In this document: in pieces, positions 23,710 to 48,891 of the stretch
Position numbering within the stretch: the first letter of the stretch is position 1
Layout: every line of letters begins with the position of its first letter
Origin: an uncultured Candidatus Saccharibacteria bacterium
Lineage (GTDB): Bacteria > Patescibacteriota > Dojkabacteria > J137
Length of the DNA: 64,000 bases
Assembly (NCBI GenBank): GCA_965230975.1
Contig: OZ246402.1
Location: 165,771-229,770 of the forward strand
Reading direction: 5' to 3'
Program-made: the position numbers and the translations under genes
Notes under the pieces: model-generated
The model's database searches: none
What the model saw: only the letters and a program-made list of their open reading frames with translations
What the model was told of the DNA's origin: nothing

Positions 23710-26700
23710 TCACCACCTACTATACATCAAAACTTTATGATCTTCAGCTGTTTTTGGTACCTCGTTCCAAATATATTGTGTAATAAATGGAATGAACGGG
23801 TGCAACATTTTCAAGTACTCTTTCAAAACATAAACCATTGTTAAAACTACCTCTTGTCGTATTTTTGCATCTGGTTCCGAAATTATTGCACCACTTTCTC
23901 TATCTTTAACTGTGTTTATAAATGGTTTTGATTCTTCTATTAGTACATCACAAAATGTTTTCCAAAATTCTTCGTACAATGTTTCTGTTGCGTAACCAAA
24001 TTCATAAGCGTCAACGTTTTTTGTAACTTTTGATTTCACCTGCTTAATGTGCTCAACTAATTTGATCGAAAATTCGTTTGATACTTTTTCTGCATCAAAG
24101 TTTGCTGGCTCTACTCCTTCTGCATTTGTAAGTACAAATCTGCTAGCATTCCAAATCTTATTCATGAATTGCTTAAAGTTTTTTAGCTTGTCGTATGTGA
24201 TTGCATAATTTCCGCCTGCTTTGTTTTGGTAAAAGTAAACCATTCTTACTGCGTCAGTTCCATATTCACTAACGATTTTGTCCATATCAATCATGTTGCC
24301 TTTAGATTTACTCATCTTTTGTCCATCTGTTCCTAAAACTAACCCTGTTAAGAATAAGTTTTCAAATGGAATTTGCTTGTCATGAAAGTAGGTAAACATC
24401 ATCATTCTTGAATCCCAGTTTTCTAAAATATCATGTGCGGATACTAAAACTTTTGTAGGGAAGAATGTGTCTTTTAAGTTGTGAGCTTGTAAAGTTGCAT
24501 AAACCCATTGTCCACTGCTAAACCAAGTGTCTAAAACGTTTTCGTCTTGATGCCATTCGGAAGTATTAAGTTCTAAGTTATAAGTTGTGAGATCTTTTTG
24601 TGGCTCAAATACAAAAGTAATCTTTTCTAGGTTATCGTGAGGTTTATTAACAATATCTTTGTAATCTCTATCTTTTAGTTTGTTTTCAAGTGTTCTTAAT
24701 ACTCCACCATGAGTCACGATTAATACCTTATTACCTTGATATTTTGTTTTAATCTCTTCGAATGCTCTTAAGATTCTCGATTCAAAGTTAGGGATTGTTT
24801 CAATATTGGCTTTTTCGGGGTGGTTATCAACCAAGTCGTAAATATCATTTGCAAATTCCGGGAATTTTTTAATGGCCTCTGCTCTAGTTAATCCTTCAAA
24901 GTCCCCAAAGTTCTTTTCTCTTAAGTTGGAATCTTTAATTATCTTGCTTTTATCAAAACCTATTTTGTCTGCAATTATCTCTGCAGTTTGAATCGCTCTA
25001 TTTAAATCTGAGCAAATAATGTAGTCATAGCATTCTGTGGATTCAAAATTTCTTGCTTGCTCTTTTCCTTTTTCTGTCAAATCAGTATTTGTATGACCAC
25101 CGAATCTCTTTTCAACATTAGCAATTGTCTCACCATGTCTAATAACATCAATAATTGTTGAATCAGGATTATGTAGCTGTACTCTTAAATGATTAGGGTT
25201 GTCGTATTCAAGTGGAATCCAATCTTGATTTTGCCTTTTTTCTCTTTTCATTTGAATCATATACAATTCTCCAGGTCCTTCTTTTCGACCTTCAACTGGG
25301 TATTCTTCAAATCCAAATTTTAAATAGAACTCTTTTAAATTAGCTTTTTCAGGGGTTGCAATGTGTATCTCTAGTTTATCACCAAAATCATCTAAAACTT
25401 TATACATTAATAGTTTACCCACTCCCTGTTTTTGATACTGCTTGCTTACATAAATATTTAGCCAATGTATTCTATCTGTATCCCTGATATTTTCTAAATC
25501 AATCCAACCAATAACTTCCCCATCTTTTTCTGCAATAAATACGATATTGTTTTCATCAATAATCATATCTTGATACTCTTTTATCTTTTCAAGATCATCC
25601 GATTTTCTACCATATTTATTAGCAATAACTTCTGCAGTGACACCTCTCTCTTCGTCAATAAAACTTTGCATCCAACCTTGAACATCAATCTCGTGCATGA
25701 TTGATGCATCTTTGAGTTCAGCTTTACGAATAGTGATGTCGCTGTGTGTATAAAAAGGCTTTGTTAGCCTAATCAGTTCTCTAACCTGTCCATTTTCATC
25801 AATTTCTTCTTTAATTTCTCCGTGGTACCAAACTGGTAATCTGTAACCCCACCAAAGGCTTCTTGAAATTGCCCAATCTCTTAGGTTTTCCATCCAGTGG
25901 TTAAATTTATCTACCATGTTTTCTGGGTGAATAGTAACTTGGCCATTTTTTACCATTTCTATTGCAGCCTGCTTTATGTTGTTTTCTGGAGTGTCGTATT
26001 TTAAATACCATTGAGAAGATAGAATTGGTTCAATTAAAGCTCCTGTTCTTTCAGATTTATTAATACTTTGTTTAATAGATTCCTCTTTAATTAAGTATCC
26101 TTCATTTTTCAAATCTTCGATTATTAAATCTTTAACCTTAGTGTATTTTTGATTCCTATACTTTTCAGGTACATAATCACTTACAAGCATTAGATTGCCA
26201 TCGATAATATTTCTGGCTGTAATTGATTTGTTAGGATTCTCTTTGTTCCATTCAAGCATTGTTTGATAGTCATCTTGAGAGTGTGCAGGAGTAATTTTTA
26301 GTGCTCCAGTTCCAAAGTCTGTTAAAACTTTATAGTTAGTAATAATTGGGATTTTAATATTAGTTAAAGGAATAATAACCTCTTTACCAACAATATCTTT
26401 GTATCTAGGGTCAGATGGATTAACCGCTACTGCTGTATCTCCAAACATCGTTTCCGGTCTTGTTGTTGCAACAGTTACAGATTTAGAACTGTCATCTGCA
26501 AACTTATATTGAAGATAGTAAAGTTTCCCGTCTCTCTCCTCTCTTACCATTTGATTATCTGCAACTGCTGTTCGTGCTTTTGGGTCCCAGTTAACAATTC
26601 TTACACCCTTATAAATCATACCTGCTTTATACATTTCTACAAATGTATTTAAAACAGTATCTACAACTCTTGGGTCTAATGTAAAAATATTTCTGTCATA

Positions 26701-27162
26701 ATCTGCCGAAAGACCAATATGCTTTTCATCATTCATTGCAATCTCCATATTCTTTTTAAAGAACTCCATCATCTCGGCATAAAAATCCTCTCTAGTCATA
26801 TCAAACTTGTTTCTACCCTGCTTTTCTAAAACATCTCTAATAAAAACGCCTTCACCTTCAAGCCCAGCATGATCTTTACCCGGCAAAACTAAAACTTTCT
26901 TACCCTGCATTCTGGCATATCTAGCCATTGCATCTTGATAAGCGTAACCGGAAATGTTTCCAATGTGAGGCCTTGCATAAGCGTTTGGCGGCGGACAAAT
27001 TAATGCCCATGGTTCTCTTGGATCTGCCTTCATCTCTTCAACTGACATTAATTTGTCCGTTGTAGGATTGTATTCAGGCTTGTGATAGCCGTTATTAAGC
27101 CATAAATCTAAAATTATCTTTTCGTATTCTGTTGGGTTGTATGGACCTTGTGGTAGTGACAT
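23710..27162 (-). CDS. valS: valyl-tRNA synthetase carrying an internal GNAT + histidine-phosphatase insertion
   Basis: CPPPNAYARPHIGN (HIGH), the CP1 editing domain TTRPETMFGDTAVAVNPSDPRY, NHWMENLRDWAISRSLWWGYRLPVWY, DENVLDTWFSS and GQKMSKSKGN identify ValRS. Between PVWY (aa ~446) and DVLDTWFSS (aa ~877) there are ~425 aa, where E. coli ValRS has ~35. There is no C-terminal coiled-coil. Confidence 0.9.
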   Translation of the reverse strand: MSLPQGPYNPTEYEKIILDLWLNNGYHKPEYNPTTDKLMSVEEMKADPREPWALICPPPNAYARPHIGNISGYAYQDAMARYARMQGKKVLVLPGKDHAGLEGEGVFIRDVLEKQGRNKFDMTREDFYAEMMEFFKKNMEIAMNDEKHIGLSADYDRNIFTLDPRVVDTVLNTFVEMYKAGMIYKGVRIVNWDPKARTAVADNQMVREERDGKLYYLQYKFADDSSKSVTVATTRPETMFGDTAVAVNPSDPRYKDIVGKEVIIPLTNIKIPIITNYKVLTDFGTGALKITPAHSQDDYQTMLEWNKENPNKSITARNIIDGNLMLVSDYVPEKYRNQKYTKVKDLIIEDLKNEGYLIKEESIKQSINKSERTGALIEPILSSQWYLKYDTPENNIKQAAIEMVKNGQVTIHPENMVDKFNHWMENLRDWAISRSLWWGYRLPVWYHGEIKEEIDENGQVRELIRLTKPFYTHSDITIRKAELKDASIMHEIDVQGWMQSFIDEERGVTAEVIANKYGRKSDDLEKIKEYQDMIIDENNIVFIAEKDGEVIGWIDLENIRDTDRIHWLNIYVSKQYQKQGVGKLLMYKVLDDFGDKLEIHIATPEKANLKEFYLKFGFEEYPVEGRKEGPGELYMIQMKREKRQNQDWIPLEYDNPNHLRVQLHNPDSTIIDVIRHGETIANVEKRFGGHTNTDLTEKGKEQARNFESTECYDYIICSDLNRAIQTAEIIADKIGFDKSKIIKDSNLREKNFGDFEGLTRAEAIKKFPEFANDIYDLVDNHPEKANIETIPNFESRILRAFEEIKTKYQGNKVLIVTHGGVLRTLENKLKDRDYKDIVNKPHDNLEKITFVFEPQKDLTTYNLELNTSEWHQDENVLDTWFSSGQWVYATLQAHNLKDTFFPTKVLVSAHDILENWDSRMMMFTYFHDKQIPFENLFLTGLVLGTDGQKMSKSKGNMIDMDKIVSEYGTDAVRMVYFYQNKAGGNYAITYDKLKNFKQFMNKIWNASRFVLTNAEGVEPANFDAEKVSNEFSIKLVEHIKQVKSKVTKNVDAYEFGYATETLYEEFWKTFCDVLIEESKPFINTVKDRESGAIISEPDAKIRQEVVLTMVYVLKEYLKMLHPFIPFITQYIWNEVPKTAEDHKVLMYSRW
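24583..25161 (-). other. histidine-phosphatase (phosphoglycerate-mutase-like, branch 1) domain embedded in valS, about aa 668-860
   Basis: IIDVIRHGETIANVEKRFGGHTNTDLTEKGKEQAR carries the RHGE catalytic His motif. ICSDLNRAIQTAEII and LIVTHGGVLRTL supply the second catalytic His motif. Confidence 0.7.
25243..25725 (-). other. GNAT (N-acetyltransferase) domain embedded in valS, about aa 480-640
   Basis: IVFIAEKDGEVIGWIDLE...HWLNIYVSKQYQKQGVGKLLMYKVLD...ANLKEFYLKFGFEE is the GNAT beta4-alphaC acetyl-CoA-binding Q/RxxGxG/A motif plus a C-terminal YxxxGF. Confidence 0.7.
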
Positions 27163-27474: not shown

Positions 27475-27990
27475 ATGAATGACATGCCAACCTCCTCTCG
27501 TAAAAATTTTGATGAAGATACTATCAGAAACTTTTTTAGAGTAGAAGGTAATCAAATTGATAATGTAAAAGTAAATATTTTTCTTAGAATGGTTATTGAA
27601 CAAGTTATTCAACAATTAAAAGGCTTTGAGCAAATAGGAGTCGCAAGGAAACAATTTGATATAAGTAGTCTCAGAGCTTTGATAAGAAATACTTTGAGGT
27701 CAGCTATTCAGACATTAACTCAGAATATATACATGGTTGAGAGGGGCGTGCCAGTCAAGCAGGGTGCCTTAGTAGGGTTTTCTCAGGAAGAGTTGCAAAT
27801 TCTGTTAGCTGCTATATCCAATAGAATACCGAGAGAAAATGTTAGTGGTAAGTTCGATTATGTTGCAAAGTCGGAACTGGAGGATCTACTAAATAATGCG
27901 TTTACAGATATAGACTTTGAGAATGCTGAAGATAGAGAACTATTGATGAATGAACTTAAATCAGTATCCGGTAGATTATTGGGGAATTAA
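27475..27990 (+). CDS. hypothetical protein
   Basis: 171-aa ORF divergent from valS. No recognised motif. Confidence 0.4.
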   Translation: MNDMPTSSRKNFDEDTIRNFFRVEGNQIDNVKVNIFLRMVIEQVIQQLKGFEQIGVARKQFDISSLRALIRNTLRSAIQTLTQNIYMVERGVPVKQGALVGFSQEELQILLAAISNRIPRENVSGKFDYVAKSELEDLLNNAFTDIDFENAEDRELLMNELKSVSGRLLGN

Positions 27991-28013
27991 ATCCCCAATT
28001 CAGCATTTTTTTA

Positions 28014-28364
28014 TTAGGTAAGCCTCTTCTTCAACTCCTCGTTCTCTTTAATTAGGGCTTCTATTGCTTTATAGGTAAGTTCGTTAAACTTTTGTTGTTT
28101 CATGCTCTGTTTTTCAATAACGTTAACAACCGTATTAATTATTAATCCTTGAACTTTTGTTTTTACCTTGCCAATAAAACCACCTCTCTCTCTAGATTTG
28201 AATGAATATAGCGAACCCAAAACATCTTTAGAACTTTTTAAACCCGGAAGTAAATATTCTTTAAGCAATGTAGAGTTATCAATATCATTTACAGAATTAT
28301 CAATACCCTCTTCTTTTAAAAGTGAATTAACTTTATCTAACAACTCTTTACTCTTTTCTTCCAT
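28014..28364 (-). CDS. hypothetical coiled-coil protein
   Basis: 116-aa K/E-rich ORF, 17 nt downstream of the 367-aa gene on the same strand. Confidence 0.35.
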   Translation of the reverse strand: MEEKSKELLDKVNSLLKEEGIDNSVNDIDNSTLLKEYLLPGLKSSKDVLGSLYSFKSRERGGFIGKVKTKVQGLIINTVVNVIEKQSMKQQKFNELTYKAIEALIKENEELKKRLT

Positions 28365-30778: not shown

Positions 30779-30868
30779 CCATTCATTTTATCAGTTTGAA
30801 AGTAAAAGTTACATGGATATGTTTATGTAAAGATATCTTTTGACAATATATATGAATGTTGATAATAT

Positions 30869-31117
30869 ATGTTTATGAAAGTATCCAAGCTTCCACCAAT
30901 AGAGGTAGACATTAAAGAGTTAGAAAAATTTAAAATTCTTACAAAGCAAGAAGGTGAAAGTATGTCAAAAGTTATTCGCAAAATGATTTCTGATTACAAT
31001 AAGTCTAAATTGGGAAGAGCTACTAAAAAAGGACTTTGGGAGGAATATCAAATTAAAATTAAGTCTACGGGTGTAACAAGCACTAATTATAAAGATTTTT
31101 TATATGGTAGTGCTTGA
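30869..31117 (+). CDS. putative antitoxin (VapB-like) of a type II TA pair
   Basis: 82-aa ORF overlapping the downstream PIN-domain gene by 14 nt, which is the typical TA arrangement. Confidence 0.45.
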   Translation: MFMKVSKLPPIEVDIKELEKFKILTKQEGESMSKVIRKMISDYNKSKLGRATKKGLWEEYQIKIKSTGVTSTNYKDFLYGSA

Positions 31118-31589
31118 TACTTCTTTTGTTATTGCTGCTCTCTCGGTAGAAGATCCATTTCATTTAGAATCTGTTGAAACCTTGGTACGTTTAGAATCAC
31201 AAGGTGAAATATTTGTAATTAATAATTTTGTTGTTGCAGAACTACTTACCTTGGCAAATTTAAGATTTAAATCTTATAAAGCTTCGATTGTAAAATATAC
31301 TACTGACTTATTTGAAAATAACTTACACAATTCAATTTATAAATTTATTGATGAAGGCTTATTTACAAAATCTTTTGTTTTATCAAAAGAATCAAAGATA
31401 TCTTTTACAGACTGTACAGTTATTTTAACTGCACTGCAATATAAGTCTGCAACACTTTTAAGTCATGATGTGCAATTAACTAAAATGTACTCAAATCTAA
31501 CCTTGGGTAAGGCTAAGTTATCGGGATATTTGTTAAACGATAAATCAACTAAACAATACTCTGCTAATAAAAGAAAAAAGTTTTCATAA
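31104..31589 (+). CDS. vapC: PIN-domain ribonuclease toxin (VapC-like)
   Basis: MVVLDTSFVIAAL is the hallmark PIN N-terminal strand with the first catalytic Asp. Conserved E (VVAELLTL) and D (SFTDCTVI) are downstream. 161 aa. Confidence 0.6.
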   Translation: MVVLDTSFVIAALSVEDPFHLESVETLVRLESQGEIFVINNFVVAELLTLANLRFKSYKASIVKYTTDLFENNLHNSIYKFIDEGLFTKSFVLSKESKISFTDCTVILTALQYKSATLLSHDVQLTKMYSNLTLGKAKLSGYLLNDKSTKQYSANKRKKFS

Positions 31590-31698
31590 AACGTTACTTT
31601 TTGTTACAACTGAATACATTCGATACTTCATTTTACATCGAGAAGTCCCAATAACAGCAGTTCGTAGTTGGGATATCTAATATGTTAAAATTACCATC

Positions 31699-33492
31699 GT
31701 GAAAAGATATTCGTTTTTACCACAAAACTATAAGATAGAGCTTAAAAGCATTTATTCAGAGCTATTAAAAGTAGATCCATACTCTGACAAAGAGTTAGAT
31801 AAGATTTTAAAAAAACACCCAAAAGATAAAAGCGATATTTTTAGCAGAGATAACTTAATTAAAGGAATTGAATACTTTATAGAAAATTCTTTTGATTTTG
31901 AAGAAGAGGAGCTTTTGGCTTTAATTCCAAAAATTAAAATGAAGCCAACAAGAACAATTTCCGGAGTCACTACAGTAACTGTTTTAACAAAACCATTTGC
32001 GTGCCCTGGGCAGTGTGTATTTTGCCCAAATGATGTTCGAATGCCTAAAAGCTATATTGCAACAGAACCAGGTGCACAAAGAGCTTTAATGAATCGATTT
32101 AGTCCATATTTCCAGGTTAGCAATAGACTTAAAGCTTTAAAAAATATTGGCCATCCTACAGATAAAATTGAACTTTTAATTTTAGGGGGGACTTGGTCAT
32201 ATTATCCAAAAAAATATCAAATTTGGTTTATTAAAGAATGTTTTAGGGCAATGAATGAATTTGGTGTAAAAGAGGTGAATTCTGCAAATTCAATGATCGA
32301 TATTTCTGAATACTTAAAAGTTGATTATAACCAAGAATTAAGAAAAGAAACTGGCGATAAGCCTTACAATCAATTAATTCAAACACCAAAATTTAAAGCT
32401 GATTTTGATAAATATATAGAAAAAGAAGACTACGAAGGTAAGGGCTTAAAAGAGTTATGGGAAGATTTGGTAAAAGAGCAAGATATTAATAGTAGTTGTA
32501 AAACAAGGTGTGTTGGGTTGGTTTTAGAAACAAGACCGGATTCTATTACTGCCCAAGAGGTTTTTGATTTAAGAAGACTTGGAGCCACAAAAATACAACT
32601 TGGAATTCAAACTTTAGACGATAAAATAAGTGACTTAAACAAACGTGGAGAACACAGAGAAGAGACATCTTTAGCCTTCAATTTATTAAGAAAAGGTGGT
32701 TTTAAAATTCATGCGCATATAATGCCAAACTTGTACGGAGCAACTCCAGAAATTGATTTAAGGGTGTACAAAGAGCTTTTTGATGACCCAAATTACAAGC
32801 CAGATGAATTAAAAATTTATCCAACCTCAATTATTAAAAATACAGAACTTTACACTTTGTGGCAAGAAGGCAAATATACACCCTACACTACTCAAGAATT
32901 AGTAGATTTATTAGCAGATTGCATAGAATACACTCCTGAATACTGTAGACTTACAAGAATCATTAGAGATATTCCATCTACAGAAATAGAAGATGGTAAC
33001 AAAACTACAAATTTAAGAGAGGTTGCAGAATTTAAGCTTAAAAAAGAAGGTCGAAAGAATAGTAATATTAGAGCCAGAGAAATTCGAGATAAAAAAGTTA
33101 CTATGAAAGATTTAACACTCGACATTATAGAATACTCTACTGCGATTTCCACGGAGTATTTTTTACAATACATAACAACCTCTCGGGAAATCGCAGGGTT
33201 TTTACGGCTTTCAATTCCAAAATCTAACAAAAACGATATTACTGCAGAATTAGACAACTCTGCAATTATTAGAGAAGTTCATGTTTACGGCCCAAGTTTA
33301 GAATTAGACAAAGACTCAATTGGCGAAGCTCAGCACTTGGGCCTTGGTACAAAATTAATAGAAAAAGCAAAATTAATAACTAAAGATCATGGCTTTAGAA
33401 ATTTAGCAGTAATCTCTAGCATAGGAACAAGAGAATATTATCAAAAAAGAGGATTTGAATTAAAGGAATATTATCAAGTTGCAAAGTTATAG
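31699..33492 (+). CDS. Elp3-like radical SAM / GNAT fusion protein (tRNA wobble-uridine modification-type)
   Basis: TVLTKPFACPGQCVFCPN carries the radical-SAM CxxxCxxC cluster motif in the Elp3-typical context. SYIATEPGAQRA follows. C-terminal HLGLGTKLIEKAKLITKDHGFRNLAVISSIGTREYYQKRGFELKEYY is the Elp3 GNAT domain. Confidence 0.75.
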   Translation: MKRYSFLPQNYKIELKSIYSELLKVDPYSDKELDKILKKHPKDKSDIFSRDNLIKGIEYFIENSFDFEEEELLALIPKIKMKPTRTISGVTTVTVLTKPFACPGQCVFCPNDVRMPKSYIATEPGAQRALMNRFSPYFQVSNRLKALKNIGHPTDKIELLILGGTWSYYPKKYQIWFIKECFRAMNEFGVKEVNSANSMIDISEYLKVDYNQELRKETGDKPYNQLIQTPKFKADFDKYIEKEDYEGKGLKELWEDLVKEQDINSSCKTRCVGLVLETRPDSITAQEVFDLRRLGATKIQLGIQTLDDKISDLNKRGEHREETSLAFNLLRKGGFKIHAHIMPNLYGATPEIDLRVYKELFDDPNYKPDELKIYPTSIIKNTELYTLWQEGKYTPYTTQELVDLLADCIEYTPEYCRLTRIIRDIPSTEIEDGNKTTNLREVAEFKLKKEGRKNSNIRAREIRDKKVTMKDLTLDIIEYSTAISTEYFLQYITTSREIAGFLRLSIPKSNKNDITAELDNSAIIREVHVYGPSLELDKDSIGEAQHLGLGTKLIEKAKLITKDHGFRNLAVISSIGTREYYQKRGFELKEYYQVAKL

Positions 33493-34194
33493 GTTCCACA
33501 TATGGTTAAACCTAGTTTTGGCTAAGTCTACTAGGTGCTTATCAAAAATTTCTAATATTGAAGGCGAGTTATTAATGCACATTATTAATACAGAAGTATC
33601 GTTAATATTAGCCATTAAATTTACATTAAAGTTTTTGATTTGTTTGACCTCTCTTAGATTATCTCCAGGATTTTCTGCATGAATTGTATGGTCTGTAGCA
33701 CATGCAATTATTTTGGCGGGTAAGTGATTTTTTATTCTAGGCTTAATATAAAGTTCTTTATCGATTTTTTCAGGATAATATTTTCTAAATAAGTCATGAC
33801 TCCCTATAAACTTAACTTCTTTTGAAGATTTATATAATGTTTGGGTGCATTTTTCAATGAAGTTGTTTTCTCCTTCTGAGTAACTAAATTCTGTAATTGG
33901 GCTAACTGTATTTCCAAAAATTGCAGACAGTGATTCTAGATAGGGTTCAAGGCTTTTTTTGAAAATTGATGAGTTAAGATTTGTCTCTATTCCTAAAAGC
34001 TTAGAAGTCTCAAAAAAGTCCAGCTCCAAAAATTCTGCAATTTTAAAAAGTGTTTCCTTTGTGGGGTTTATTCTACCGTTCTCAATTCTAGATATTGTTC
34101 CTGTTGAGGCGTTTATTGCTAACTCAAGATCTAGTTGAGATACTCCCTTATTTAGTCTGTATTTTTTTAAAGCTAGTGCGGTATTCATATTCAA
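33487..34194 (-). CDS. XRE-family HTH transcriptional regulator with a C-terminal domain of unknown function
   Basis: N-terminal LKKYRLNKGVSQLDLELAINASTGTISRIENGRINPTKETLFKIAEFL is an HTH_3/XRE motif. 235 aa. Overlaps the Elp3 3' end convergently by 6 nt. Confidence 0.7.
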   Translation of the reverse strand: MNMNTALALKKYRLNKGVSQLDLELAINASTGTISRIENGRINPTKETLFKIAEFLELDFFETSKLLGIETNLNSSIFKKSLEPYLESLSAIFGNTVSPITEFSYSEGENNFIEKCTQTLYKSSKEVKFIGSHDLFRKYYPEKIDKELYIKPRIKNHLPAKIIACATDHTIHAENPGDNLREVKQIKNFNVNLMANINDTSVLIMCINNSPSILEIFDKHLVDLAKTRFNHMWNL

Positions 34195-34238
34195 TATCGT
34201 TTTGGGTATTATAAATCCGCCTGATGGTTTATTACAAG

Positions 34239-34532
34239 TTAGTGTGCACTAACTTTGATTAAAGATTTAACTATTGAGGCATTTCTAATAAGATAATTTA
34301 TCTCATCTTCTGAAATCGAAATGCCTAATAACTCTGCTTTCTCTAAAAAGTTTAAATTAAGCACCTCGGCAATTTTAAGAAGAGTTTCTTTAGAAGGGTT
34401 AACAAACCCATTCTCTATTCTGCTTATAGAGCCGGTAGAAGCGCCAATGCTTAGTTCGAGTTGAAGTTGGCTTACATTAGCTCTTATTCTATATTTCCTT
34501 AACTTGTTCCCAATTTTTATAAAATGCTCCAT
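34239..34532 (-). CDS. XRE-family HTH regulator, short paralog of the adjacent gene
   Basis: LRKYRIRANVSQLQLELSIGASTGSISRIENGFVNPSKETLLKIAEVL is a near-duplicate of the HTH of the 235-aa neighbour. 97 aa, lacking the C-terminal domain. Confidence 0.7.
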   Translation of the reverse strand: MEHFIKIGNKLRKYRIRANVSQLQLELSIGASTGSISRIENGFVNPSKETLLKIAEVLNLNFLEKAELLGISISEDEINYLIRNASIVKSLIKVSAH

Positions 34533-34697
34533 GGCTACTGATTTAATAGCTGTATTATATATTGTATTCAGATTTATGTTTGTGTTATAGATTTTGTAAC
34601 AGATATATTAAGCCAGATGTGGTTGTGCTGATTAGCCTTGTGAGTGCTTGCTTTTAAGGGTATAATCCTTTGTGAATTTAGTTATGTTTATTTTGAC

Positions 34698-35462
34698 ATG
34701 ACATCAAAAAAGTTATTGTCGCTTTTAAATGATTACGGACTTTCAAATAATGAATCCAAAGTTTATATTGGATTGCTTAAGTACGGCCACTCTACCGTAA
34801 TGGAGTTAAGTAATAGAATTAGAATGAATCGGTCTACAACTCATTTGGCTGTAAATGAATTGATATCTAAGGGACTTGTTTCTCAGACCAAATATGGTGA
34901 GAGAAGAATCTTGATACCTGAATCACCTGAAAAAATACAGCTGTTAGTAGAAAGTGAAAAGCTAAATATTAAGAGGAAAGAAGAGGGATTGTCTGTTCTA
35001 ATAGATAGTATTTATGAACAAATTCACTCTGCAAAAACCAGCACAGAATTTGTTGTTAAATATATTGAAGGTCGAGAATCAGTTTCGGTTCTGTATGACT
35101 CTATTTTAGAGTCTAAAGAAATTAGAGCCTATTATAACTTCAAAGCTTTGACTACAATGTTTCCTGAAAATGGAGAAAAATTCTTGCAAGCAGGATTAAA
35201 AGGCGTAAAAGTTTGGGATATTATTGCAGATGGAGACTCCGGTTCGCTAATGTGGAACCATAAAATGTATTCTCAAACAGAAAATGTAAAATTTAAACTT
35301 CTTCCAGAAAGGATAGATATGGGTTTTATGGATTATCTGATATATGAGAATAGAATTGCAATGGTCTACTTTGAAGATGTGCCTAAGGCTATTCTAATTT
35401 CCAATCCGTTGCTTTCTGCCAATGCAAAAGCTTTGTTTGATTTGATGTGGGGGTTTCTCTAG
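34698..35462 (+). CDS. TrmB-family (archaeal-type) HTH transcriptional regulator
   Basis: The ORF track begins at 34644, but a -10-like TATAAT at 34661-34666 lies inside that extension. The paralog alignment supports the start at MTSKKLL (34698). SNNESKVYIGLLKYGHSTVMELSNRIRMNRSTTHLAVNELISKGLVSQTKYGERR is a TrmB wHTH. Confidence 0.65.
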   Translation: MTSKKLLSLLNDYGLSNNESKVYIGLLKYGHSTVMELSNRIRMNRSTTHLAVNELISKGLVSQTKYGERRILIPESPEKIQLLVESEKLNIKRKEEGLSVLIDSIYEQIHSAKTSTEFVVKYIEGRESVSVLYDSILESKEIRAYYNFKALTTMFPENGEKFLQAGLKGVKVWDIIADGDSGSLMWNHKMYSQTENVKFKLLPERIDMGFMDYLIYENRIAMVYFEDVPKAILISNPLLSANAKALFDLMWGFL

Positions 35463-35651
35463 ATTAGTAGCCAATAGACCGTCCCTATAGTGCGTGTAGA
35501 TCGTTAATTTGCTATAATTACAACAGGCTTTGATATCCCATTATGGTATATTGTTAGGGTTAGATGAAGGTAGCTTATTGTGAATTTGTAATCAAATATT
35601 ATTTAAAATAAAGAAATTTCGCTTGATCAAAATTTAGGGGCTTCTGGTTAT

Positions 35652-37007
35652 ATGTATTATCAAAAAATTTTATTACATTCTAGGGACAAAGTTAAGTTAG
35701 ATAAAATTCGGGAAAGACTTCGTTCATCTGGGGGTGGTATTTATAAAGGAATTATTCCTAGCAAGGAATGGTTTTCTACAAATATAGGTGAAGGCTATGA
35801 AAGAGTTATACTTGCTTCAGACGGTATTGAGAGTTTGAGTTTTAGGGATTTCACGGTGTTAGGTGGTTGGTGTGCTATTCGTACTAACGATATGTTAAAT
35901 ATAAACGAAGGTAAGCTTAGTAATCTAGAGAGGAACACAACATATAATTACTCTTCTCCATCTGAGGTGTCAGAGTGGGTCTTAAATGCAGTTTCTATTG
36001 ATCAAATTGTTGAGGCTGTTGGTACCTACAAGGGTTGTAAATATACTGTGATCTCTGAACAGCGTCTTTGGGGAGATCGCCTTCAGCAGTCTGTTGAGGC
36101 TCACTTGGGTCGAAGTCTCACAAATGTTGAATCTGAACAGCTTAAATCAGCTGTAGTTAATTCGGAGTTAAAAAGGAAGATTATTACTCAGAAATATCTT
36201 GATAAGGTGACTGGACAAAAGAATTCTTTGAAAGTTGTTATTGATACTGACATATTCGAGGATCTTGTTAGAGAAAGGAATATCTTGTTAGAAAAAGTTT
36301 CGGTTACCATGAAAGACTTAGCTATGCCTATATACTTAAATCGAGTAAAGTCTGGTGCTGATCACCATGATGTGGAGAATATATTAGAGCAGAATATAAT
36401 GAAGGACTTGGTGTCATACATTGATAGTTATAGTTTGGTTTGGTTTATGTATACAGGTCCTTACCTTGAACTTTTAAAATCAAAAGGGTATGTTGATACT
36501 GAAAAGGCAGTGATAATTGAACCTTGGTCGCATGCCTCTAGCAATGAATCAGAGAGTCTTTTTAATCAAAGAGTTTTTGAGCAATTTGGCATTAATAATT
36601 ACTTAGATCCAAATGGATTTAACCGTAATTTAGGATTTATCGCTATGGATGAAGTCGCTTCTTTCTCTTGGAAAAAAATTCGATCAAGCGAGCCTATTTC
36701 TAAGGTTCCGAATTTGAAAAACTATAAAAACTACACTGCTACTTTGTCTCGATCTGCTACTAGGGGTGAGTTAGATTTGTCAAAAAATCAAATATTTCTC
36801 GACGCAGTTAACTACTATCCGTTTAATGAAAACCTGCAATTGATAAAAAAGATGATTGAGGTTAGGGAAGACTGGTTGAATCTTAAGTCTACTTTGTTTG
36901 ACAAGGATATTTCAAATAGAAAACAAGACTTTAGAGTCAAAATGAAATCCCTGGAAGATCTTGTAATTGATCAACTCAGGGATTTTTTTGATTGTATCTT
37001 TGATTAA
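35652..37007 (+). CDS. hypothetical protein (451 aa) flanked by paralogous TrmB-like regulators
   Basis: Long ORF with no recognised motif. Local GC is slightly higher than the surroundings. Confidence 0.45.
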   Translation: MYYQKILLHSRDKVKLDKIRERLRSSGGGIYKGIIPSKEWFSTNIGEGYERVILASDGIESLSFRDFTVLGGWCAIRTNDMLNINEGKLSNLERNTTYNYSSPSEVSEWVLNAVSIDQIVEAVGTYKGCKYTVISEQRLWGDRLQQSVEAHLGRSLTNVESEQLKSAVVNSELKRKIITQKYLDKVTGQKNSLKVVIDTDIFEDLVRERNILLEKVSVTMKDLAMPIYLNRVKSGADHHDVENILEQNIMKDLVSYIDSYSLVWFMYTGPYLELLKSKGYVDTEKAVIIEPWSHASSNESESLFNQRVFEQFGINNYLDPNGFNRNLGFIAMDEVASFSWKKIRSSEPISKVPNLKNYKNYTATLSRSATRGELDLSKNQIFLDAVNYYPFNENLQLIKKMIEVREDWLNLKSTLFDKDISNRKQDFRVKMKSLEDLVIDQLRDFFDCIFD

Positions 37008-37009
37008 GT

Positions 37010-37780
37010 TTACGCTAGTAATTCCCACATGGATTGGTGAAGTGCTTTCAAACTCTCTGCGATAAGCTTGCTAGTTATTAATGTAGCACTAATGCTATCC
37101 TTTTCTAGTTGAATTAAAGCGGCGTGCTCCTCAAATACCAGGATATCTACTCCTGCAAAAAACTTTGAAGCAGGAAGAAATCGTTTGTGATATCTTTTTT
37201 GGCTATTAGTTACCTCTCTAGCTAGTGGTGAATCTAGGGCTATATCCCAAACGTTTCTTGCAGGATTCATATCAAATGCTTTGGTAAAAAGATTTTCTGA
37301 GCCTGGGAAGATCTCGTAGTATTTATCTAGGTTTACAAAAGAGTAAACTTCTGTAGACTTAAGACTAAGTTCATATACATACTTAACTTCTTTTTCCCCT
37401 TGGTAATATTTCACTTCGACTGAGGTGTTCTCTTTCGCTGTAGGTACTGTATCATAAATTGCTTTTACAATATCTGGCATGTTGTCTTCTAGTTTTTTCA
37501 TATCCCATCTCTTTTGTTCCATTAAGAACTCAAGTTTTTTAGGATCCTCTGCAACTACCATTCTTCTTTCTCCGTAGTTTGTTTGGCTTACTAAACCTTT
37601 CTTAATTAATTCTTCGACAGTGTTATGTGTCGTTGACCTTTTAATGCCAGTTTCTCTGGCCAAATTCATAATTGTATTGGGACCAGTTTTTAGTAACGTT
37701 AAATAAACAGTAATCTCCTTATCTGTTAAGCCAAAGTCAATTAAGAAGTTCTTTACTGGCTTGTCGATTTTAGTAGCCAT
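37010..37780 (-). CDS. TrmB-family HTH transcriptional regulator, paralog of 34698-35462
   Basis: TDKEITVYLTLLKTGPNTIMNLARETGIKRSTTHNTVEELIKKGLVSQTNYGERR. Shares the HTH and C-terminal blocks (VKYIEG/VKYYQG, LDKYYEIFPG vs FKALTTMFPE) with the upstream TrmB-like gene. Confidence 0.65.
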   Translation of the reverse strand: MATKIDKPVKNFLIDFGLTDKEITVYLTLLKTGPNTIMNLARETGIKRSTTHNTVEELIKKGLVSQTNYGERRMVVAEDPKKLEFLMEQKRWDMKKLEDNMPDIVKAIYDTVPTAKENTSVEVKYYQGEKEVKYVYELSLKSTEVYSFVNLDKYYEIFPGSENLFTKAFDMNPARNVWDIALDSPLAREVTNSQKRYHKRFLPASKFFAGVDILVFEEHAALIQLEKDSISATLITSKLIAESLKALHQSMWELLA

Positions 37781-37856
37781 TTTAAAATAATAATAAGTAA
37801 TTTGTCAGATTTTTTTAGAAATCGCTAAATTATAACATTTTTTAAAGCGCGAAATC

Positions 37857-37886
37857 AAATACCCACAAAATAATTCGCGGGTATTT
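37857..37886 (-). terminator. possible hairpin terminator downstream of rpsG
   Basis: AAATACCC-n14-GGGTATTT 8-bp inverted repeat. No clean U-tract on the minus strand, so weak. Confidence 0.25.
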
Positions 37887-37914
37887 GAAATCGACAGCTT
37901 TGGGATTCTTGTTA

Positions 37915-38382
37915 TTATGCAAATTGAGCAAAAGCTTTGTTTGCCTCTGCCATTCTTTGAACCTCGTCTTTTTTCTTAATTGCAGTACCTTCTTTGTTAT
38001 AAGCATTCATAAGTTCATGGGATAATACAACCCAAAACTCTGTATTTTTTCTAGCATTTCTTGCAGCATCAATAATCCATCTACTTGCAAGAGCCAACTG
38101 TCTGTTAGCGCTTACTTGTACTGGAACTTGAAAGTTAGAACCACCTACTCTTCTAGATCTAACCTCTACCTTTGGTTTAACATTTTCTATTGCTTTTTCA
38201 AAAGCTTCTATTCCTGTGGTTTTTGTCTTTTTTTGTAAATCTTCTATTGCATTGTAAACAATAGTTTGAGCAATGCTCTTTTTACCATCTATCATTAAAT
38301 AATTTGTGAATTTAGAAACTAATTCACTATTGTAAATACCATCTGGTTGTATCTCTCTCTTTGGTGACTGTTTACCTCTCAT
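37915..38382 (-). CDS. rpsG: 30S ribosomal protein uS7
   Basis: MRGKQSPKREIQPDGIYNSELVSKFTNYLMIDGKKSIAQTIVYNAIE... matches uS7 throughout. 155 aa. Confidence 0.9.
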   Translation of the reverse strand: MRGKQSPKREIQPDGIYNSELVSKFTNYLMIDGKKSIAQTIVYNAIEDLQKKTKTTGIEAFEKAIENVKPKVEVRSRRVGGSNFQVPVQVSANRQLALASRWIIDAARNARKNTEFWVVLSHELMNAYNKEGTAIKKKDEVQRMAEANKAFAQFA

Positions 38383-38544: not shown

Positions 38545-39006
38545 TTATTTAGACTTTTCTCCTGCCTTTGGCTTCTTTCTACCGTATCTACTTCTTGCTT
38601 GTCTTCTAGATTCTACTGGAGCAGAATCGTAAACACCTCTTACAATTTGGTATTTTACACCTGGCAAGTCTGGTCTTCTTCTTGCTTTTACTAAAACAAC
38701 TGAGTGTTCTTGCAAGTTGTGACCTTCACCAGGAATGTATGCTGTTACAATTTGCTTGTTAGATAATCTTACTCTGGCAATTTTTCTTAAAGCAGAGTTA
38801 GGTTTTCTAGGAGTCATTGTTTTTACAGCAACACAAACGCCTCTTTTAAAAGGATTTTCCTTTTTGTAGTAGGTATTTTTAACTGCGTTGTAATTGAATT
38901 GCAATGCTTTGTATTTGATAGTTTCAGAAAAAAGCAAACCCTTGAATCTAGTTTGTCCTTTCTTTGGTTTTCTACCAGTTTTTACTAATTGTGATACTCT
39001 TGACAT
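38545..39006 (-). CDS. rpsL: 30S ribosomal protein uS12 with an N-terminal-region insertion
   Basis: [55 protein letters not shown]...[15 protein letters not shown] is canonical uS12. It carries about 22 extra residues between the KKGQ and PFKRGV blocks relative to E. coli S12, and a longer basic C-tail. Confidence 0.9.
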
Positions 39007-39138: not shown

Positions 39139-42100
39139 TTATGAAATAGCTGCAGGTTCTTCTATTTTTGCGTTTTCATCAAAATCAATTAATGTTTCGC
39201 CATAGTGAGACCTTACATTCCCGCTAATTTTTTCTTGTAAAACTTCTCCAACTGGAATTGGACGTCCGATTATAACATTTTCTTTCAATCCTCTCAAATG
39301 ATCTACTTTACCAATAAGGGCTGCGTCGGTTAGAACCCTAACTTGTTGCTCAAATGATGCTGCAGATAAGAAGCTTTCTGTTCTTAAAGCTGCGTTTGTA
39401 ACACCCATAATAACTCTTTCGAATTTAGCAATCCTCTTTCCTTCTGACCCTAATTTTTGATTTTCTACCATTACGTCTAGAATATCAACATAGTCTCCTG
39501 GTAAGAATAATTCGCTATCTCCGCTATCTTGAATTAAGGCGTATCTACTCATTTGTCTTGCAACAATTTCCAAGTGCCTGTCATCTGCTTCTAAACCTTG
39601 AATACCGTAAACATCTTGAACTTCTTTAATAACATACTTTTGTGCATCGGTTACAGATCTTAGTTTTGCCATTTCTTTAGGATCAATAGATCCAATTGTC
39701 AATTGAGTACCCTTTTCTACATGTTGTCCATCTTGTACTAGTAAGCTAATCATTGAATCTGCTTCTTTTTCTACTTCCATATCTTTTTCGGTTACTAGAT
39801 CTATACTGTTTTTGCTAACAGATGCTACTCCAGTGAAATCTGCCTTTATATCTTTACCACTCTTCTTGCCTAATAAGTCGCCAGCCTTTACCTTTGCACC
39901 ATCTTTTATAGCAATATCTTCTGCAGAATCAAATTCATATTTTTTATGAACTTTCTTTTTATCTGCAATTCTTATTGTTACTTTCTTCTTATCTTCTACA
40001 ATTGTTACAGTACCAGAAATATCGGCTAATAATGCTAATGCCTTTGGAGTTCTAGCCTCAAGTAATTCCTCTACTCTTGGTAAACCTTGAGTAATGTCGG
40101 ATTTTGCAGCTCTAGCGTCAGATTTACTTTTTAGTGTTAACTGAGTTGTTGGTTCTCCAAGGGCTTGAGATGCAATTGTACCAACTGCTTCTCCAATATT
40201 GATAATTTCTCCGGTACCGTTATCTACACCGTAACACTTAATACACATTCCATGGGCTTTTTCACAAGTTAATGGACTTCTAACTTTCACTTTTGTAATA
40301 TTCTCGTTTTCTGCAATTTCTTTTGCTATTTTTGGTGTAATGTATTCATTTCTTTTAATCACAATCTCTCCAGTTTTACTATCTGCCAAGTCTTCTGCAA
40401 CAAATCTACCTTTAATTCGGTTTGCATAAGCTTGAAGTCTAGCTTCTGATTTATCTATAAATATTCCGTTTTCTGTACCACAATCTTCTACATTTACTAC
40501 AACATCTTGAGCTACGTCATGCAATCTTCTAGTTAAGTAACCAGAGTCTGCTGTTCTTAGCGCAACATCTGCGAATGATTTTCTTGCTCCTCTTGCAGAT
40601 ACAAAGTATTCAAAGCTTGATAAACCTGATTTAAAGTTACTCTTAATAGGTAAATCTACGATATTACCTGTTGGGTCAATAACGTATCCACCTACTCCAG
40701 AGATCTTTTTAACCCAAGCACTTACTGGAGTTGCTCCAGACTGGTCAAGGTCAACCAAGTTCTTTGAGTTTTGTTTTGCAATGCTCCAAACTTCGCTTTG
40801 TAGCTTGTCTGCTGCATCTGCCCATTGCTCTCTTTTTAACCACTTTAATTCGTTTAATGTGATTAAACCTTCGTTGTATTGCTCAATAAGTTTGTTTTCT
40901 ACATCTGCAAAGTTTTCTAATCTAGTCTTTAGTTCATCATTTGCACCAAATTCAAATTCTTCCATAGAGATTGACAATCCGTGTTTAGCAGCATATTGGA
41001 AACCTAAAGTTTTAATTTCGTCTAATACTCTAATCGCCTCATCTCTACCATATCTATCAAAGATATTTGCAGATATTTTAGAAATATCACTTTGGTTTAA
41101 TGATTTGTTTACAAATTCATAGTCGCTAGGTAGTGCTTTGTTGAAAATTGCTCTACCAGCTGTTGTTACAATAACCTCACCATTTAAAAGTAATTTAATT
41201 GGATCGCTAAAGCTAATTTTTCCGGTATAGTAGTCTGCAATTGCTGATTCATCTGATGAATAGAATCCAACTGGGTTAGCTTCGTTTCCTTCTAGTTTTG
41301 TTAAGAAGTAAATACCCATGGCCATGTCAAACTTTGTGTGAATCAAAGGTGACCCGTCTCTTAAAGATAAAATATTATCTTTAGCAAACATTCTCTTTTT
41401 AACTTCTTCAATAGAAGCTTCTGAAAGTGGCAAATGAACTGCCATTTGGTCTCCGTCAAAGTCAGCGTTAAAACCTTTACATGTAATTGGGTGCAATCTA
41501 ATAGCGCTACCTTCTATTAATACTGGGTAGAAAGCCAAAATAGATTGTCTGTGTAAGGTTGGAGCTCTGTTTAGTAAAACAGGGTGGTCTTTACTTACAT
41601 CTTCTAAAATATCCCAAACGTCATCTGACTTGCTTTCAAATACAAGCTTTGCCCTTGCAGGGTTTGCTGCATATCCTCTAGCAATTAATTCTCTGATAAT
41701 GAATGGTTTAAATAGTTCTAATGCAATTGTTTTTGGTAAACCACACTGGTCAAATCTTAATTCTGGACCAGCAACAATTACTGCGTTTCCAGAGTAGTCT
41801 ACTCTTTTACCCAATAAGTTTTGTCTAAATCTACCTTGCTTACCTCTTAACATGTCAGATAATGATTTAAATGGCATGCCTCTTGAGTTTAATGAAGGTG
41901 ATCCTGGTTTGTGATTATTATCTAATAAAGAGTCAACAGCTTCTTGAAGCATTCTTTTTTCATTTCTTAAAATGATTTCAGGTGCTCCTAATGCGATTAA
42001 TCTTCTTAATCTATTGTTTCTGTTAATTACTCTTCTATATAGGTCGTTTAAGTCGTAAGTAGCAAATCTACCTCCTGGTAATTGAACAATTGGTCTTAAA

Positions 42101-43086
42101 TCTGGAGGAATTACAGGTAGTATATCCATTATTATTGCAGATGGATTTACGCCGGATTTTCTAAGTCCTTTAAGAATTCGAACTCTTTGTACTAATCTGC
42201 TTCTTTTCATTGCAGATTTGCTTACAGCAAGCTCTGCTTCAATTGTTTCAATTTCTGCATTTATATCTAGCTTTAATAAAAGCTCTTTAATTGCTTCTGC
42301 ACCCATTCCTGCCTCATAAAAGTAGAATGCATATCCGTCTAATAATTGAAACTCCTCTTCTGAAAGAGTTGTTCCAAGTCTCATGTCTTCAATTAAATTC
42401 TTGATATCTGTGAACTTTTTATCAATATTTTCTTCTCTTTGTTTGTATGCAGATTTTATTTTTGCAGCTTCTACTTTTTCTGAATTTCTTAATCTCTCTA
42501 ATTGCATTTCTGCTTTTGATTTATCTTTGTTAGCTTTTCTTACATCTTCTGATTCTTCTTCAAACCTTGCTTTATTTTCGTTAATTTTTGATTCTAATTC
42601 TGTTGCAAGCTCTTCAACTTCTGTTTTTTTGTACTCTTCTAGGTTTTCTAAAGCTTTTTTTCTATCTTCTTCGTTGATTGTGGTTACAACATATCTTGCG
42701 TAATAAATTACGGTTTCAATTTTCTTTTGAGGGATATCTAAGATCAAAGAAAGTCTATTAGGTACACCATTAGAGAACCAAACATGTGCGATTGGAGCGG
42801 CTAGTTTAATGTGACCCATTCTCTCTCTTCTTACTCTTTTGTGCGTTACTTCTACTCCACATCTATCGCAAACGATACCTTTGTATCTAATCTTTTTGTA
42901 TTTTCCGCAATAACATTCAAAATCTCTAGTTGGACCAAAGATCTCTTCTGCCATCAATCCTCCTGGTTCTGGCTTGAATGTTCTATAGTTGATTGTTTCC
43001 GCCTTTGTTACCTCTCCATGAGACATATTTAGTATGTCTTGGGCAGAAGCGATTGTTATCTTGACTGCTGTAAAATCTTTTAACAT
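39139..43086 (-). CDS. rpoC: DNA-directed RNA polymerase subunit beta'
   Basis: 1315 aa. NADFDGDQMAVH catalytic motif and conserved beta' blocks throughout. Confidence 0.95.
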   Translation of the reverse strand: MLKDFTAVKITIASAQDILNMSHGEVTKAETINYRTFKPEPGGLMAEEIFGPTRDFECYCGKYKKIRYKGIVCDRCGVEVTHKRVRRERMGHIKLAAPIAHVWFSNGVPNRLSLILDIPQKKIETVIYYARYVVTTINEEDRKKALENLEEYKKTEVEELATELESKINENKARFEEESEDVRKANKDKSKAEMQLERLRNSEKVEAAKIKSAYKQREENIDKKFTDIKNLIEDMRLGTTLSEEEFQLLDGYAFYFYEAGMGAEAIKELLLKLDINAEIETIEAELAVSKSAMKRSRLVQRVRILKGLRKSGVNPSAIIMDILPVIPPDLRPIVQLPGGRFATYDLNDLYRRVINRNNRLRRLIALGAPEIILRNEKRMLQEAVDSLLDNNHKPGSPSLNSRGMPFKSLSDMLRGKQGRFRQNLLGKRVDYSGNAVIVAGPELRFDQCGLPKTIALELFKPFIIRELIARGYAANPARAKLVFESKSDDVWDILEDVSKDHPVLLNRAPTLHRQSILAFYPVLIEGSAIRLHPITCKGFNADFDGDQMAVHLPLSEASIEEVKKRMFAKDNILSLRDGSPLIHTKFDMAMGIYFLTKLEGNEANPVGFYSSDESAIADYYTGKISFSDPIKLLLNGEVIVTTAGRAIFNKALPSDYEFVNKSLNQSDISKISANIFDRYGRDEAIRVLDEIKTLGFQYAAKHGLSISMEEFEFGANDELKTRLENFADVENKLIEQYNEGLITLNELKWLKREQWADAADKLQSEVWSIAKQNSKNLVDLDQSGATPVSAWVKKISGVGGYVIDPTGNIVDLPIKSNFKSGLSSFEYFVSARGARKSFADVALRTADSGYLTRRLHDVAQDVVVNVEDCGTENGIFIDKSEARLQAYANRIKGRFVAEDLADSKTGEIVIKRNEYITPKIAKEIAENENITKVKVRSPLTCEKAHGMCIKCYGVDNGTGEIINIGEAVGTIASQALGEPTTQLTLKSKSDARAAKSDITQGLPRVEELLEARTPKALALLADISGTVTIVEDKKKVTIRIADKKKVHKKYEFDSAEDIAIKDGAKVKAGDLLGKKSGKDIKADFTGVASVSKNSIDLVTEKDMEVEKEADSMISLLVQDGQHVEKGTQLTIGSIDPKEMAKLRSVTDAQKYVIKEVQDVYGIQGLEADDRHLEIVARQMSRYALIQDSGDSELFLPGDYVDILDVMVENQKLGSEGKRIAKFERVIMGVTNAALRTESFLSAASFEQQVRVLTDAALIGKVDHLRGLKENVIIGRPIPVGEVLQEKISGNVRSHYGETLIDFDENAKIEEPAAIS

Positions 43087-48435: not shown

Positions 48436-48501
48436 TATACCATGGATATAGATGATCAGTATGGATAAGCTTGTATATAAATTGAAAGCAAAATTTAAGG
48501 G

Positions 48502-48825: not shown

Positions 48826-48891
48826 AAAATAATTATTAAAATTTATAAATATTATTAATCATTATAATTCTTTATATCAATAATTAAATAG

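Follow-up and report, generated by a model that had tools for sequence, protein, structure and literature searches.

The stretch analysed here, called the window below, comprises 64,000 nucleotides of contig OZ246402.1 (positions 165,771 to 229,770) from an uncultured Candidatus Saccharibacteria bacterium that GTDB places within the Dojkabacteria, and our subject is the group of genes that follows rpsG, the last gene of its str operon. The minus strand carries rpoB (43149-46580), rpoC (39139-43086), rpsL and rpsG in this order, as proposed in an initial annotation made from the letters alone and as our open reading frame (ORF) map and Pfam scans bear out. The usual continuation into fusA and tuf, which that annotation reported as absent, is indeed lacking: no window ORF of at least 50 aa contains an EF-G or EF-Tu G1 motif, and the 64 kb hold neither gene. 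Beyond rpsG lie five genes, which we refer to as the block, encoding two TrmB-like proteins (TrmB1 and TrmB2), a 451-aa protein on the opposite strand between these paralogs, as the annotation had described, and two XRE-family helix-turn-helix (HTH) proteins (XRE-97 and XRE-235), with an Elp3 gene at the far boundary (Table 1). The TrmB and XRE genes of the block are the only ones in the whole window.

Table 1. Features at the rpsG end of the str operon and in the adjoining gene block (window positions).
Feature	Position	Strand	Evidence
Elp3-type radical-SAM/GNAT tRNA-modification enzyme, conserved far boundary of the cluster	31699..33492	+	NCBIfam TIGR01211 ELP3, 483 bits (cutoff 350)
XRE-235, XRE HTH (residues 1-60) with TrmB-type C-terminal domain (residues ~104-235, window 33490-33885)	33487..34194	-	HTH_3, 50.2 bits
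Strain-variable segment, XRE-235 C-terminal domain	33501..34018	-	No nucleotide match in L060
XRE-97, short XRE/Cro-type HTH protein, divergent from TrmB2	34239..34532	-	Pfam HTH_3, 49.0 bits (cutoff 23)
TrmB2, second TrmBL2-like paralog	34698..35462 (longer ORF from GTG 34644)	+	Pfam TrmB, 44.8 bits
451-aa orphan enzyme (predicted; slot gene), convergent with TrmB1 (2 nt between the stop codons)	35652..37007	+	No Pfam match
TrmB1, TrmBL2-like DNA-binding protein (predicted): winged HTH, long helix, alpha/beta C-terminal domain	37010..37780	-	Pfam TrmB, 48.9 bits (cutoff 25.6)
Promoter-like site for the TrmB1 gene (putative)	37829..37858	-	Consensus scan: TTGATT-18-TATAAT with TG
Terminator-like hairpin directly 3' of rpsG	37845..37900	-	RNA fold -29.2 kcal/mol, z -7.05
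rpsG (S7), final gene of the shortened str operon	37915..38382	-	Pfam Ribosomal_S7, 187 bits
rpsL (S12), flank	38545..39006	-	Pfam Ribosom_S12_S23, 112 bits

Relatives of the locus were gathered by a metagenome scan with the S7 protein and by homolog look-ups, and are cited here by locus number. In nine related loci (L008, L016-L019, L057-L059) of Dojkabacteria-type Candidate Phyla Radiation (CPR) bacteria, in which S7, RpoC and Elp3 are 66–74%, 65–70% and 63–70% identical to the window proteins, rpsG is followed on the same strand by a TrmB1 ortholog without exception (9/9). Where the contig is long enough, there follow a gene convergent with TrmB1 (the slot gene), one to three more TrmB-like genes, each with a short XRE gene as partner, Elp3 and a methyltransferase. 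The resulting order, (ValRS-)methyltransferase-Elp3-XRE/TrmB units-slot gene-TrmB-rpsG-rpsL-rpoC-rpoB, was found in L008, L016, L017, L019, L057, L058 and L059, with L008 reproducing the layout of the window from ValRS through rpoB, and Elp3 occupies the same position in L008, L016, L017, L019 and L057-L060. Across the syntenic loci S7, S12 and RpoC are 65–79% identical to their window counterparts, and TrmB1 has diverged at the rate of S7 and RpoC (72% identity in L008). The nearest TrmB1 homologs come from records of Candidatus Dojkabacteria or Patescibacteria.

The arrangement outside this clade is different. In at least 22 loci with S7 identity of 56% or less, rpsG is followed by fusA, often then by tuf, and in six further distant loci the contig stops within an EF-G-like N-terminus after rpsG. 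The loss of fusA after rpsG is thus a clade-wide feature and an old operon break. A single locus, L020 (4271-4651), presented another context after rpsG, with a TrmB1 ortholog cut at 126 aa and unrelated genes next to it; similar organisms (L018 and L019) have the full TrmB1 gene, and we set L020 aside because its contig is probably chimeric or rearranged.

Our preferred reading, to which we give a probability of roughly 0.65, is that the block is a vertically inherited regulatory cluster of the Dojkabacteria-type CPR lineage. The initial annotation had pictured a mobile or duplicated cassette, and had allowed that the same genes in the same place with typical composition in related genomes would mark the block as ancestral; this is what we found. 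The duplicated part of that picture holds, given that relatives differ in copy number (two to four TrmB and one or two XRE genes), and the mobile part is refuted by synteny and typical composition. The GC content of the block (0.335, against 0.323 for the 64-kb window) lies below that of the rpsG-rpoB genes (0.347), the reverse of the higher GC that had been claimed, and its tetranucleotide distance falls at the 87th percentile of equal-sized windows. Only the GC content at third codon positions (GC3) is mildly raised, at 0.25–0.315 against a window mean of 0.239 (sd 0.030). Inverted and direct repeats at the block boundaries, also suggested as a check, amounted to short chance matches of 70–85% identity and no true repeats, the window and the block within it contain no tRNA genes or Rfam elements, and no integrase or transposase occurs among the genes scanned. 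Hence none of the usual marks of a genomic island (mobility genes, flanking repeats, a tRNA target, deviant composition) was detected, nor is the block absent from close relatives at the same site, where only the slot gene and the C-terminal domain of XRE-235 vary. A horizontally acquired cassette that was inserted after rpsG and displaced fusA-tuf could draw on the raised GC3 and on replacements, between relatives or strains, that affect the slot gene, the C-terminal domain of XRE-235 and small segments close by. Set against the synteny of the whole block in nine loci, a GC content below that of the rps/rpo genes and ordinary tetranucleotide composition, the missing repeats, tRNA and mobility genes, and the divergence of TrmB1 at the pace of S7 and RpoC, we regard such an insertion as extremely improbable. 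As an island replacing fusA the locus has limited importance, being ordinary ancestral synteny; its residual interest lies in the TrmBL2-like cluster in CPR bacteria, in a chimera of XRE and TrmB domains, and in an orphan enzyme family with a fold resembling that of certain aminoacyl-tRNA synthetases (aaRS) and cyclodipeptide synthases (CDPS).

The break itself can be followed at the nucleotide level. The hairpin directly 3' of rpsG was not equalled by any of 200 shuffled sequences, and GC-rich hairpins with a T run stand at the equivalent place in L008, L016, L017, L019, L058 and L059, which indicates that the str operon ends at rpsG in this clade. Between rpsG and TrmB1 there is also a putative promoter for the TrmB1 gene, followed by CTGACA at 37803-37808, and a block TGTGTTAnAAT-ATTyTGACA with an extended -10 is kept after the hairpin in the orthologous rpsG-TrmB1 intergenic regions. 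Compared with the canonical str operon rpsL-rpsG-fusA-tuf, the locus shares the placement of rpsL-rpsG after rpoBC, as in many bacteria and most sampled CPR loci, and differs in the terminator-like end at rpsG, in the absence of fusA and tuf from the 64 kb, and in lacking rplJ and rplL upstream of rpoB. The genes found there instead (window 46915-49569, minus strand) encode proteins of 506, 107 and 225 aa; none has a Pfam match, and none is rplJ or rplL. On both sides, therefore, rpoBC-rpsLG is separated from its usual ribosomal-protein neighbours, and the loss of fusA forms part of a wider dispersal of the ribosomal cluster.

Both TrmB-like proteins belong to the Pfam family TrmB (PF01978). 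Their full-length identity is 35%, and both contain the HTH motif RSTTH..V.ELI.KGLVSQT.YGERR, in agreement with the common HTH that had been proposed. The likely start of TrmB2 is ATG 34698 and not GTG 34644, since the N-termini of orthologs align from 34698; a -10-like TATAAT at 34661-34666 falls within the longer ORF. The TrmB1 family is large, with at least 157 homologous clusters, and the 120 listed are mostly ~258 aa long and 42–82% identical. The AlphaFold2 (AF2) model of TrmB1 (pLDDT 89.5) has the predicted architecture of archaeal TrmBL2, namely ~260 aa comprising a winged HTH, a coiled-coil helix and a single alpha/beta C-terminal domain. Foldseek aligned it over its full length to TrmBL2 (5bpd, E 7.9e-13 over ~266 columns), and eight TrmBL2 chains match with E values of 2e-10 to 8e-13 over 254–271 columns and TM-scores of 0.39–0.41, the low score (~0.40) being due to inter-domain geometry, as the orientation of the domains differs or is uncertain. 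A TrmB profile likewise matches TrmBL2 3qph (E 7e-8). The regulators are thus of archaeal type, as had been suggested.

TrmBL2 is an abundant chromatin protein (PMC3031468, PMC4877046), described as a chromosomal protein and global repressor with some bacterial homologs (PMC3031468). The likeness to the Thermococcales proteins TK0471 and PF0496 extends over length (about 256–264 aa), the N-terminal TrmB-family winged HTH, the long helix and the alpha/beta C-terminal domain. The window proteins differ in being bacterial, in their identity of only 16–18%, and in forming groups of two to four clustered paralogs paired with XRE genes. The sugar-sensing regulators TrmB and TrmBL1 of Thermococcus, Pyrococcus and Halobacterium resemble them in the N-terminal DNA-binding domain and in the placement of the regulator gene beside its presumed target, and differ in their length of ~340 aa and two-subdomain sugar-binding region. 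Consistent with this, the NCBIfam equivalogs for sugar-sensing TrmB, TrmBL1 and TrmB-Halo scored 22–31 bits over residues 5-109 only, against cutoffs of 500–650, and Pfam reported no C-terminal TrmB domain for the TrmB-like proteins. TrmBL2-type proteins, known from archaea, thus form a conserved multi-paralog cluster beside core genes for transcription and translation in Dojkabacteria-type CPR bacteria. A full-text literature search for TrmB together with CPR or Patescibacteria returned no paper on such a cluster.

XRE-97 and XRE-235 are both members of the XRE family (HTH_3). Their HTHs are 67% identical over 61 residues, which falls short of the near identity first claimed. Nor is the shorter of the two truncated: XRE proteins of 82–102 aa are the norm at this place in relatives, and the 235-aa protein, which public annotations start at ATG 34188 (233 aa), is the odd one. 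The divergent TrmB|XRE pair recurs in L008, L057, L058 and L059. A C-terminal domain profile (TrmB-C) built from 120 TrmB1-family sequences and TrmB2 matches residues 104-235 of XRE-235 with 28.1–28.5 bits and E values of 4e-10 and 1.7e-8, the latter against all window ORFs, among which the next best has an E value of 0.1; a smaller profile of 11 TrmB sequences gave no significant match in hhalign. On the strength of the TrmB-C match, XRE-235 is an XRE HTH joined to a TrmB-type C-terminal domain. Like other XRE/Cro-CI regulators with C-terminal sensor domains it has an HTH_3 N-terminus and a variable C-terminal domain, and it differs from them in that this domain is otherwise found on a TrmB winged HTH. 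The architecture is rare, with one other full-length homolog cluster among 5.8e9 proteins (two clusters in all); other relatives of its HTH carry GAF domains in place of TrmB-C.

This other full-length homolog of XRE-235 resides in L060, which is 98–99% identical to the window in nucleotide sequence on either side of the variable segment. Residues 1-57 are the same in both proteins (100% identity), the rest is very divergent (41% over the whole protein), and both C-terminal parts match the TrmB-C profile, with 45.6 and 28.2 bits. The C-terminal domain has undergone allelic replacement between strains. The chimera, with a domain that differs between strains, is a clear case of modular exchange of regulator domains. 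A second segment without a nucleotide match in L060 lies at 27491-28031 of the window and coincides with orf171 (27475-27990, plus strand); L060 has a 151-aa ORF on the opposite strand at this site, and the flanks are 92–99% identical.

The slot between the TrmB-like genes holds non-homologous genes in different lineages. It is occupied by the 451-aa family in the window and L008, by an unrelated 370–385-aa orphan in L016, L017 and L057, by a 344-aa orphan in L058, and by a PrmA/HemK-like methyltransferase in L019 and L059, the last of which additionally contains an agmatine deiminase and an extra TrmB; no homology was detected between the 451-aa family and the 370/385-aa slot proteins. The initial picture of paralogous regulators bracketing a cargo gene is therefore right as a description, given that the occupant differs between lineages. 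The frame around the slot is fixed and ancestral, and its content is variable.

Variable cargo beside conserved regulators recalls defence hot spots, and we considered whether the slot gene and its regulators form a defence or toxin-antitoxin-like module in which the XRE and winged-HTH proteins control a toxic effector. The slot methyltransferase of L019 matches PADLOC mad2 (E 6.6e-17) on its methyltransferase domain, and a PIN/RHH toxin-antitoxin pair lies 2 kb away. However, neither the 451-aa protein nor the 344/385-aa orphans have a PADLOC match, and the matches of the regulators cover HTH regions only. Moreover, the agmatine deiminase found at another locus is a metabolic enzyme, and elsewhere the 451-aa family adjoins aminopeptidases and a DUF917 protein. 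We consider a defence role very improbable, if marginally less so than an inserted cassette.

We then considered the 451-aa family outside this locus. In all eight lineages of its main subgroup (the window, L002, L005, L008, L009, L010, L012 from Roizmanbacteria, and L014) the gene is convergent with a TrmB1 ortholog (41–72% identical), the 3' spacing ranging from a 34-nt overlap to a 40-nt gap, and these pairs sit in at least five differing wider contexts. The 451 homolog of L002 and L005 has a gene for an M17 or M1 aminopeptidase directly upstream. In two members of a divergent subgroup, L061 (4099-6448) and L062 (941-4307), a gene for a DUF917 (S-Me-THD_N/_C) protein comes next in the same direction, with genes for M24 or M42 aminopeptidases on the flanks of the pair. 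Four contexts in all thus place 451 homologs next to aminopeptidases, which represent four families (M17, M1, M24 and M42), and a DUF917 protein. DUF917 proteins are uncharacterised; a likeness to hydantoinases has been suggested for them, and cyclodipeptide-oxidase clusters are enriched in them (bioRxiv 10.1101/2023.09.25.559410). As a lead only, these contexts point to amino-acid or peptide chemistry. Within the leader of ~130 nt upstream of the window gene, a riboswitch or T-box was not detected, the predicted fold being weaker than that of shuffled sequence (z +1.8).

A word-seeded search recovered 16 clusters of this family, and 97 representatives at 50% identity were found among 1.84 billion proteins. 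The window protein has no Pfam, NCBIfam, PADLOC or PDB profile or sequence match; Pfam scans of 78 family members gave no match, including to tRNA-synt, and none at E values up to 1 for the CDPS model, and an hhalign comparison with M. jannaschii TyrRS gave no match. The AF2 model is confident (pLDDT 91.4, pTM 0.91), and its top PDB matches are TrpRS (3a04), TyrRS (3vgj, 7ror and 2cyb) and the CDPS YvmC (3oqh), with probabilities of 0.75–0.98. The match to YvmC is weak (3oqh_B, probability 0.98, E 0.053, target TM-score 0.46; for 9i5m, E 2). The top match in the viral library BFVD is a Megavirus TyrRS (probability 0.92). TyrRS, TrpRS and CDPS are the only coherent structural neighbours of the model in two libraries.

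Inspection of the 78 sequences revealed four invariant residues, G71, G72, C74 and E136 (78/78, a GG-x-C motif and a Glu), with Q118, Y267, E290, P291, H294, N324, N354 and N357 nearly invariant; the HIGH and KMSKS signatures (H.GH or KMS[KS]) occur in none of them. In the model C74 and E136 directly follow strands 67-73 and 130-135, the first two core Rossmann strands, and the conserved residues would be placed at the C-terminal ends of parallel strands (67-73, 130-135 and 285-291), the site of Rossmann-type active sites. CDPSs, which share the Rossmann fold of TyrRS and TrpRS, rely on Ser37 and Glu182, and the covalent adduct still forms in an S37C variant (PMC12945691). By analogy with this fold, residue pair and adduct, aminoacyl-transfer chemistry with Cys and Glu would be a reasonable hypothesis for the 451-aa family. 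The modelled protein may resemble class Ic aaRS (TyrRS, TrpRS) and CDPSs (AlbC, YvmC, Rv2275) in its predicted layout, in which a helical C-terminal part comes after a Rossmann core. Like the CDPSs it dispenses with HIGH and KMSKS, and its invariant Cys and Glu may correspond to the nucleophile and Glu that CDPSs use. It differs from CDPSs in length (451 aa against about 230–300 aa) and has no sequence or profile similarity to either group.

Taken as a working model of the vertically inherited cluster, the str operon would end after rpsG at the terminator, with fusA and tuf located elsewhere, and TrmB1 would form the next transcription unit under its own promoter. Beyond TrmB1 come the lineage-variable slot, one to three TrmBL2-like paralogs each divergent with a short XRE repressor-type protein, and then Elp3. 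The slot is here filled by a predicted enzyme of a small CPR-restricted orphan family with a class-Ic aaRS/CDPS-like Rossmann fold, devoid of the ATP-binding HIGH and KMSKS motifs, and its substrate may be derived from an amino acid (an amino acid, an aminoacyl compound or a small peptide). TrmB1, TrmB2 and the XRE proteins would act as transcription repressors or nucleoid-type binders that set the expression of the slot gene and of one another, and their common C-terminal alpha/beta domain could serve oligomerisation, ligand sensing or both. Of this picture, the gene content, synteny, homology, folds, slot variability and the domain chimera with its replacement between strains were observed, and the direction of regulation, any ligand and the chemistry of the enzyme are inferred.

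Several observations weigh against this model. Most TrmB1 orthologs have no 451 neighbour (at least 157 clusters against 16) and two divergent 451 homologs, in L061 and L062, have no TrmB neighbour, so that the coupling is one-sided and confined to one subgroup. The convergent orientation provides no shared promoter, and the 451 homolog in L002 and L005 is seemingly co-transcribed with the upstream peptidase. No operator was found: k-mer enrichment upstream of TrmB1 orthologs (TGTTAT, TTGACA, ACACAT), upstream of 451 homologs and in the divergent TrmB|XRE regions returned promoter-like words only (TGTTAT, TTGACA, ATTATA) against a mostly coding background. The GC3 of the 451 and TrmB1 genes lies ~2.4 sd above the window mean, and the fold matches of the 451-aa model are weak (E 0.03–0.1, TM-score 0.35–0.46) and unaccompanied by a sequence or profile link to aaRS or CDPS.

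The main rival to a regulatory cluster sees in the TrmBL2-like proteins nucleoid or architectural proteins of a general kind without a specific tie to their neighbours, and holds that the 451-TrmB adjacency, with no regulatory meaning, persists because abutting or overlapping convergent genes leave scant room for breakpoints in compact genomes. That the closest structural relative is an abundant chromatin protein (PMC3031468, PMC4877046), that TrmB1 orthologs are far commoner than any single slot gene, that the neighbour varies and that k-mer enrichment found no operator are all consistent with it. Yet repeated exchange of the slot gene has taken place precisely at the TrmB1 3' end, so breakpoints do occur there; the main 451 subgroup keeps its TrmB1 ortholog in 8/8 lineages despite the differing contexts; and several paralogs, each divergently paired with an XRE gene, resemble specific regulators and not one abundant nucleoid-associated protein. 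We judge this rival unlikely overall, although it is by some distance the most credible of those considered.

A bolder form of the regulatory reading, which we offer as a long shot, would make the 451-aa family a previously unrecognised branch of the class-Ic aaRS/CDPS fold, in which the invariant Cys-Glu pair makes or breaks aminoacyl or (cyclo)peptide compounds in amino-acid-scavenging CPR bacteria, and would at the same time make the TrmBL2-like and XRE proteins one interacting set, linked by a common C-terminal domain; strains would swap versions of this domain and so retune the circuit. The links to aminopeptidases and to a hydantoinase-like DUF917 partner would fit (cyclo)peptide chemistry of this kind. 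With its confident model, aaRS/CDPS-like fold and invariant Cys and Glu, the family offers a concrete starting point in the search for new amino-acid or aminoacyl chemistry among organisms of poorly understood metabolism.

Several further features of the window deserve mention. The RHH/PIN toxin-antitoxin pair (window 30800-31679; RHH 30869-31117, PIN 31104-31589) lies between the methyltransferase and Elp3 genes; it is a recent small insertion or replacement, since it is absent from L008 and from L060 (~98% identical), which has a different 92-aa ORF there. The valine-tRNA ligase (23710-27162, minus strand, 1150 aa) contains an internal insert of ~340 aa with one GNAT acetyltransferase and one His_Phos_1 (histidine-phosphatase) domain, at residues ~520-860, which separates the catalytic from the anticodon-binding part; in L008 the ortholog as called has only 889 aa. 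Three large ORFs have no Pfam match (14387-16405, 672 aa; 17457-19019, 520 aa; 7482-8666, 394 aa), the last of which has the highest GC of the window (0.397). Finally, a 396-aa protein (49658-50848, plus strand) unites in one chain the Sua5/YrdC (TsaC) and TsaE domains, which both belong to the t6A tRNA-modification pathway and usually occur as separate components.

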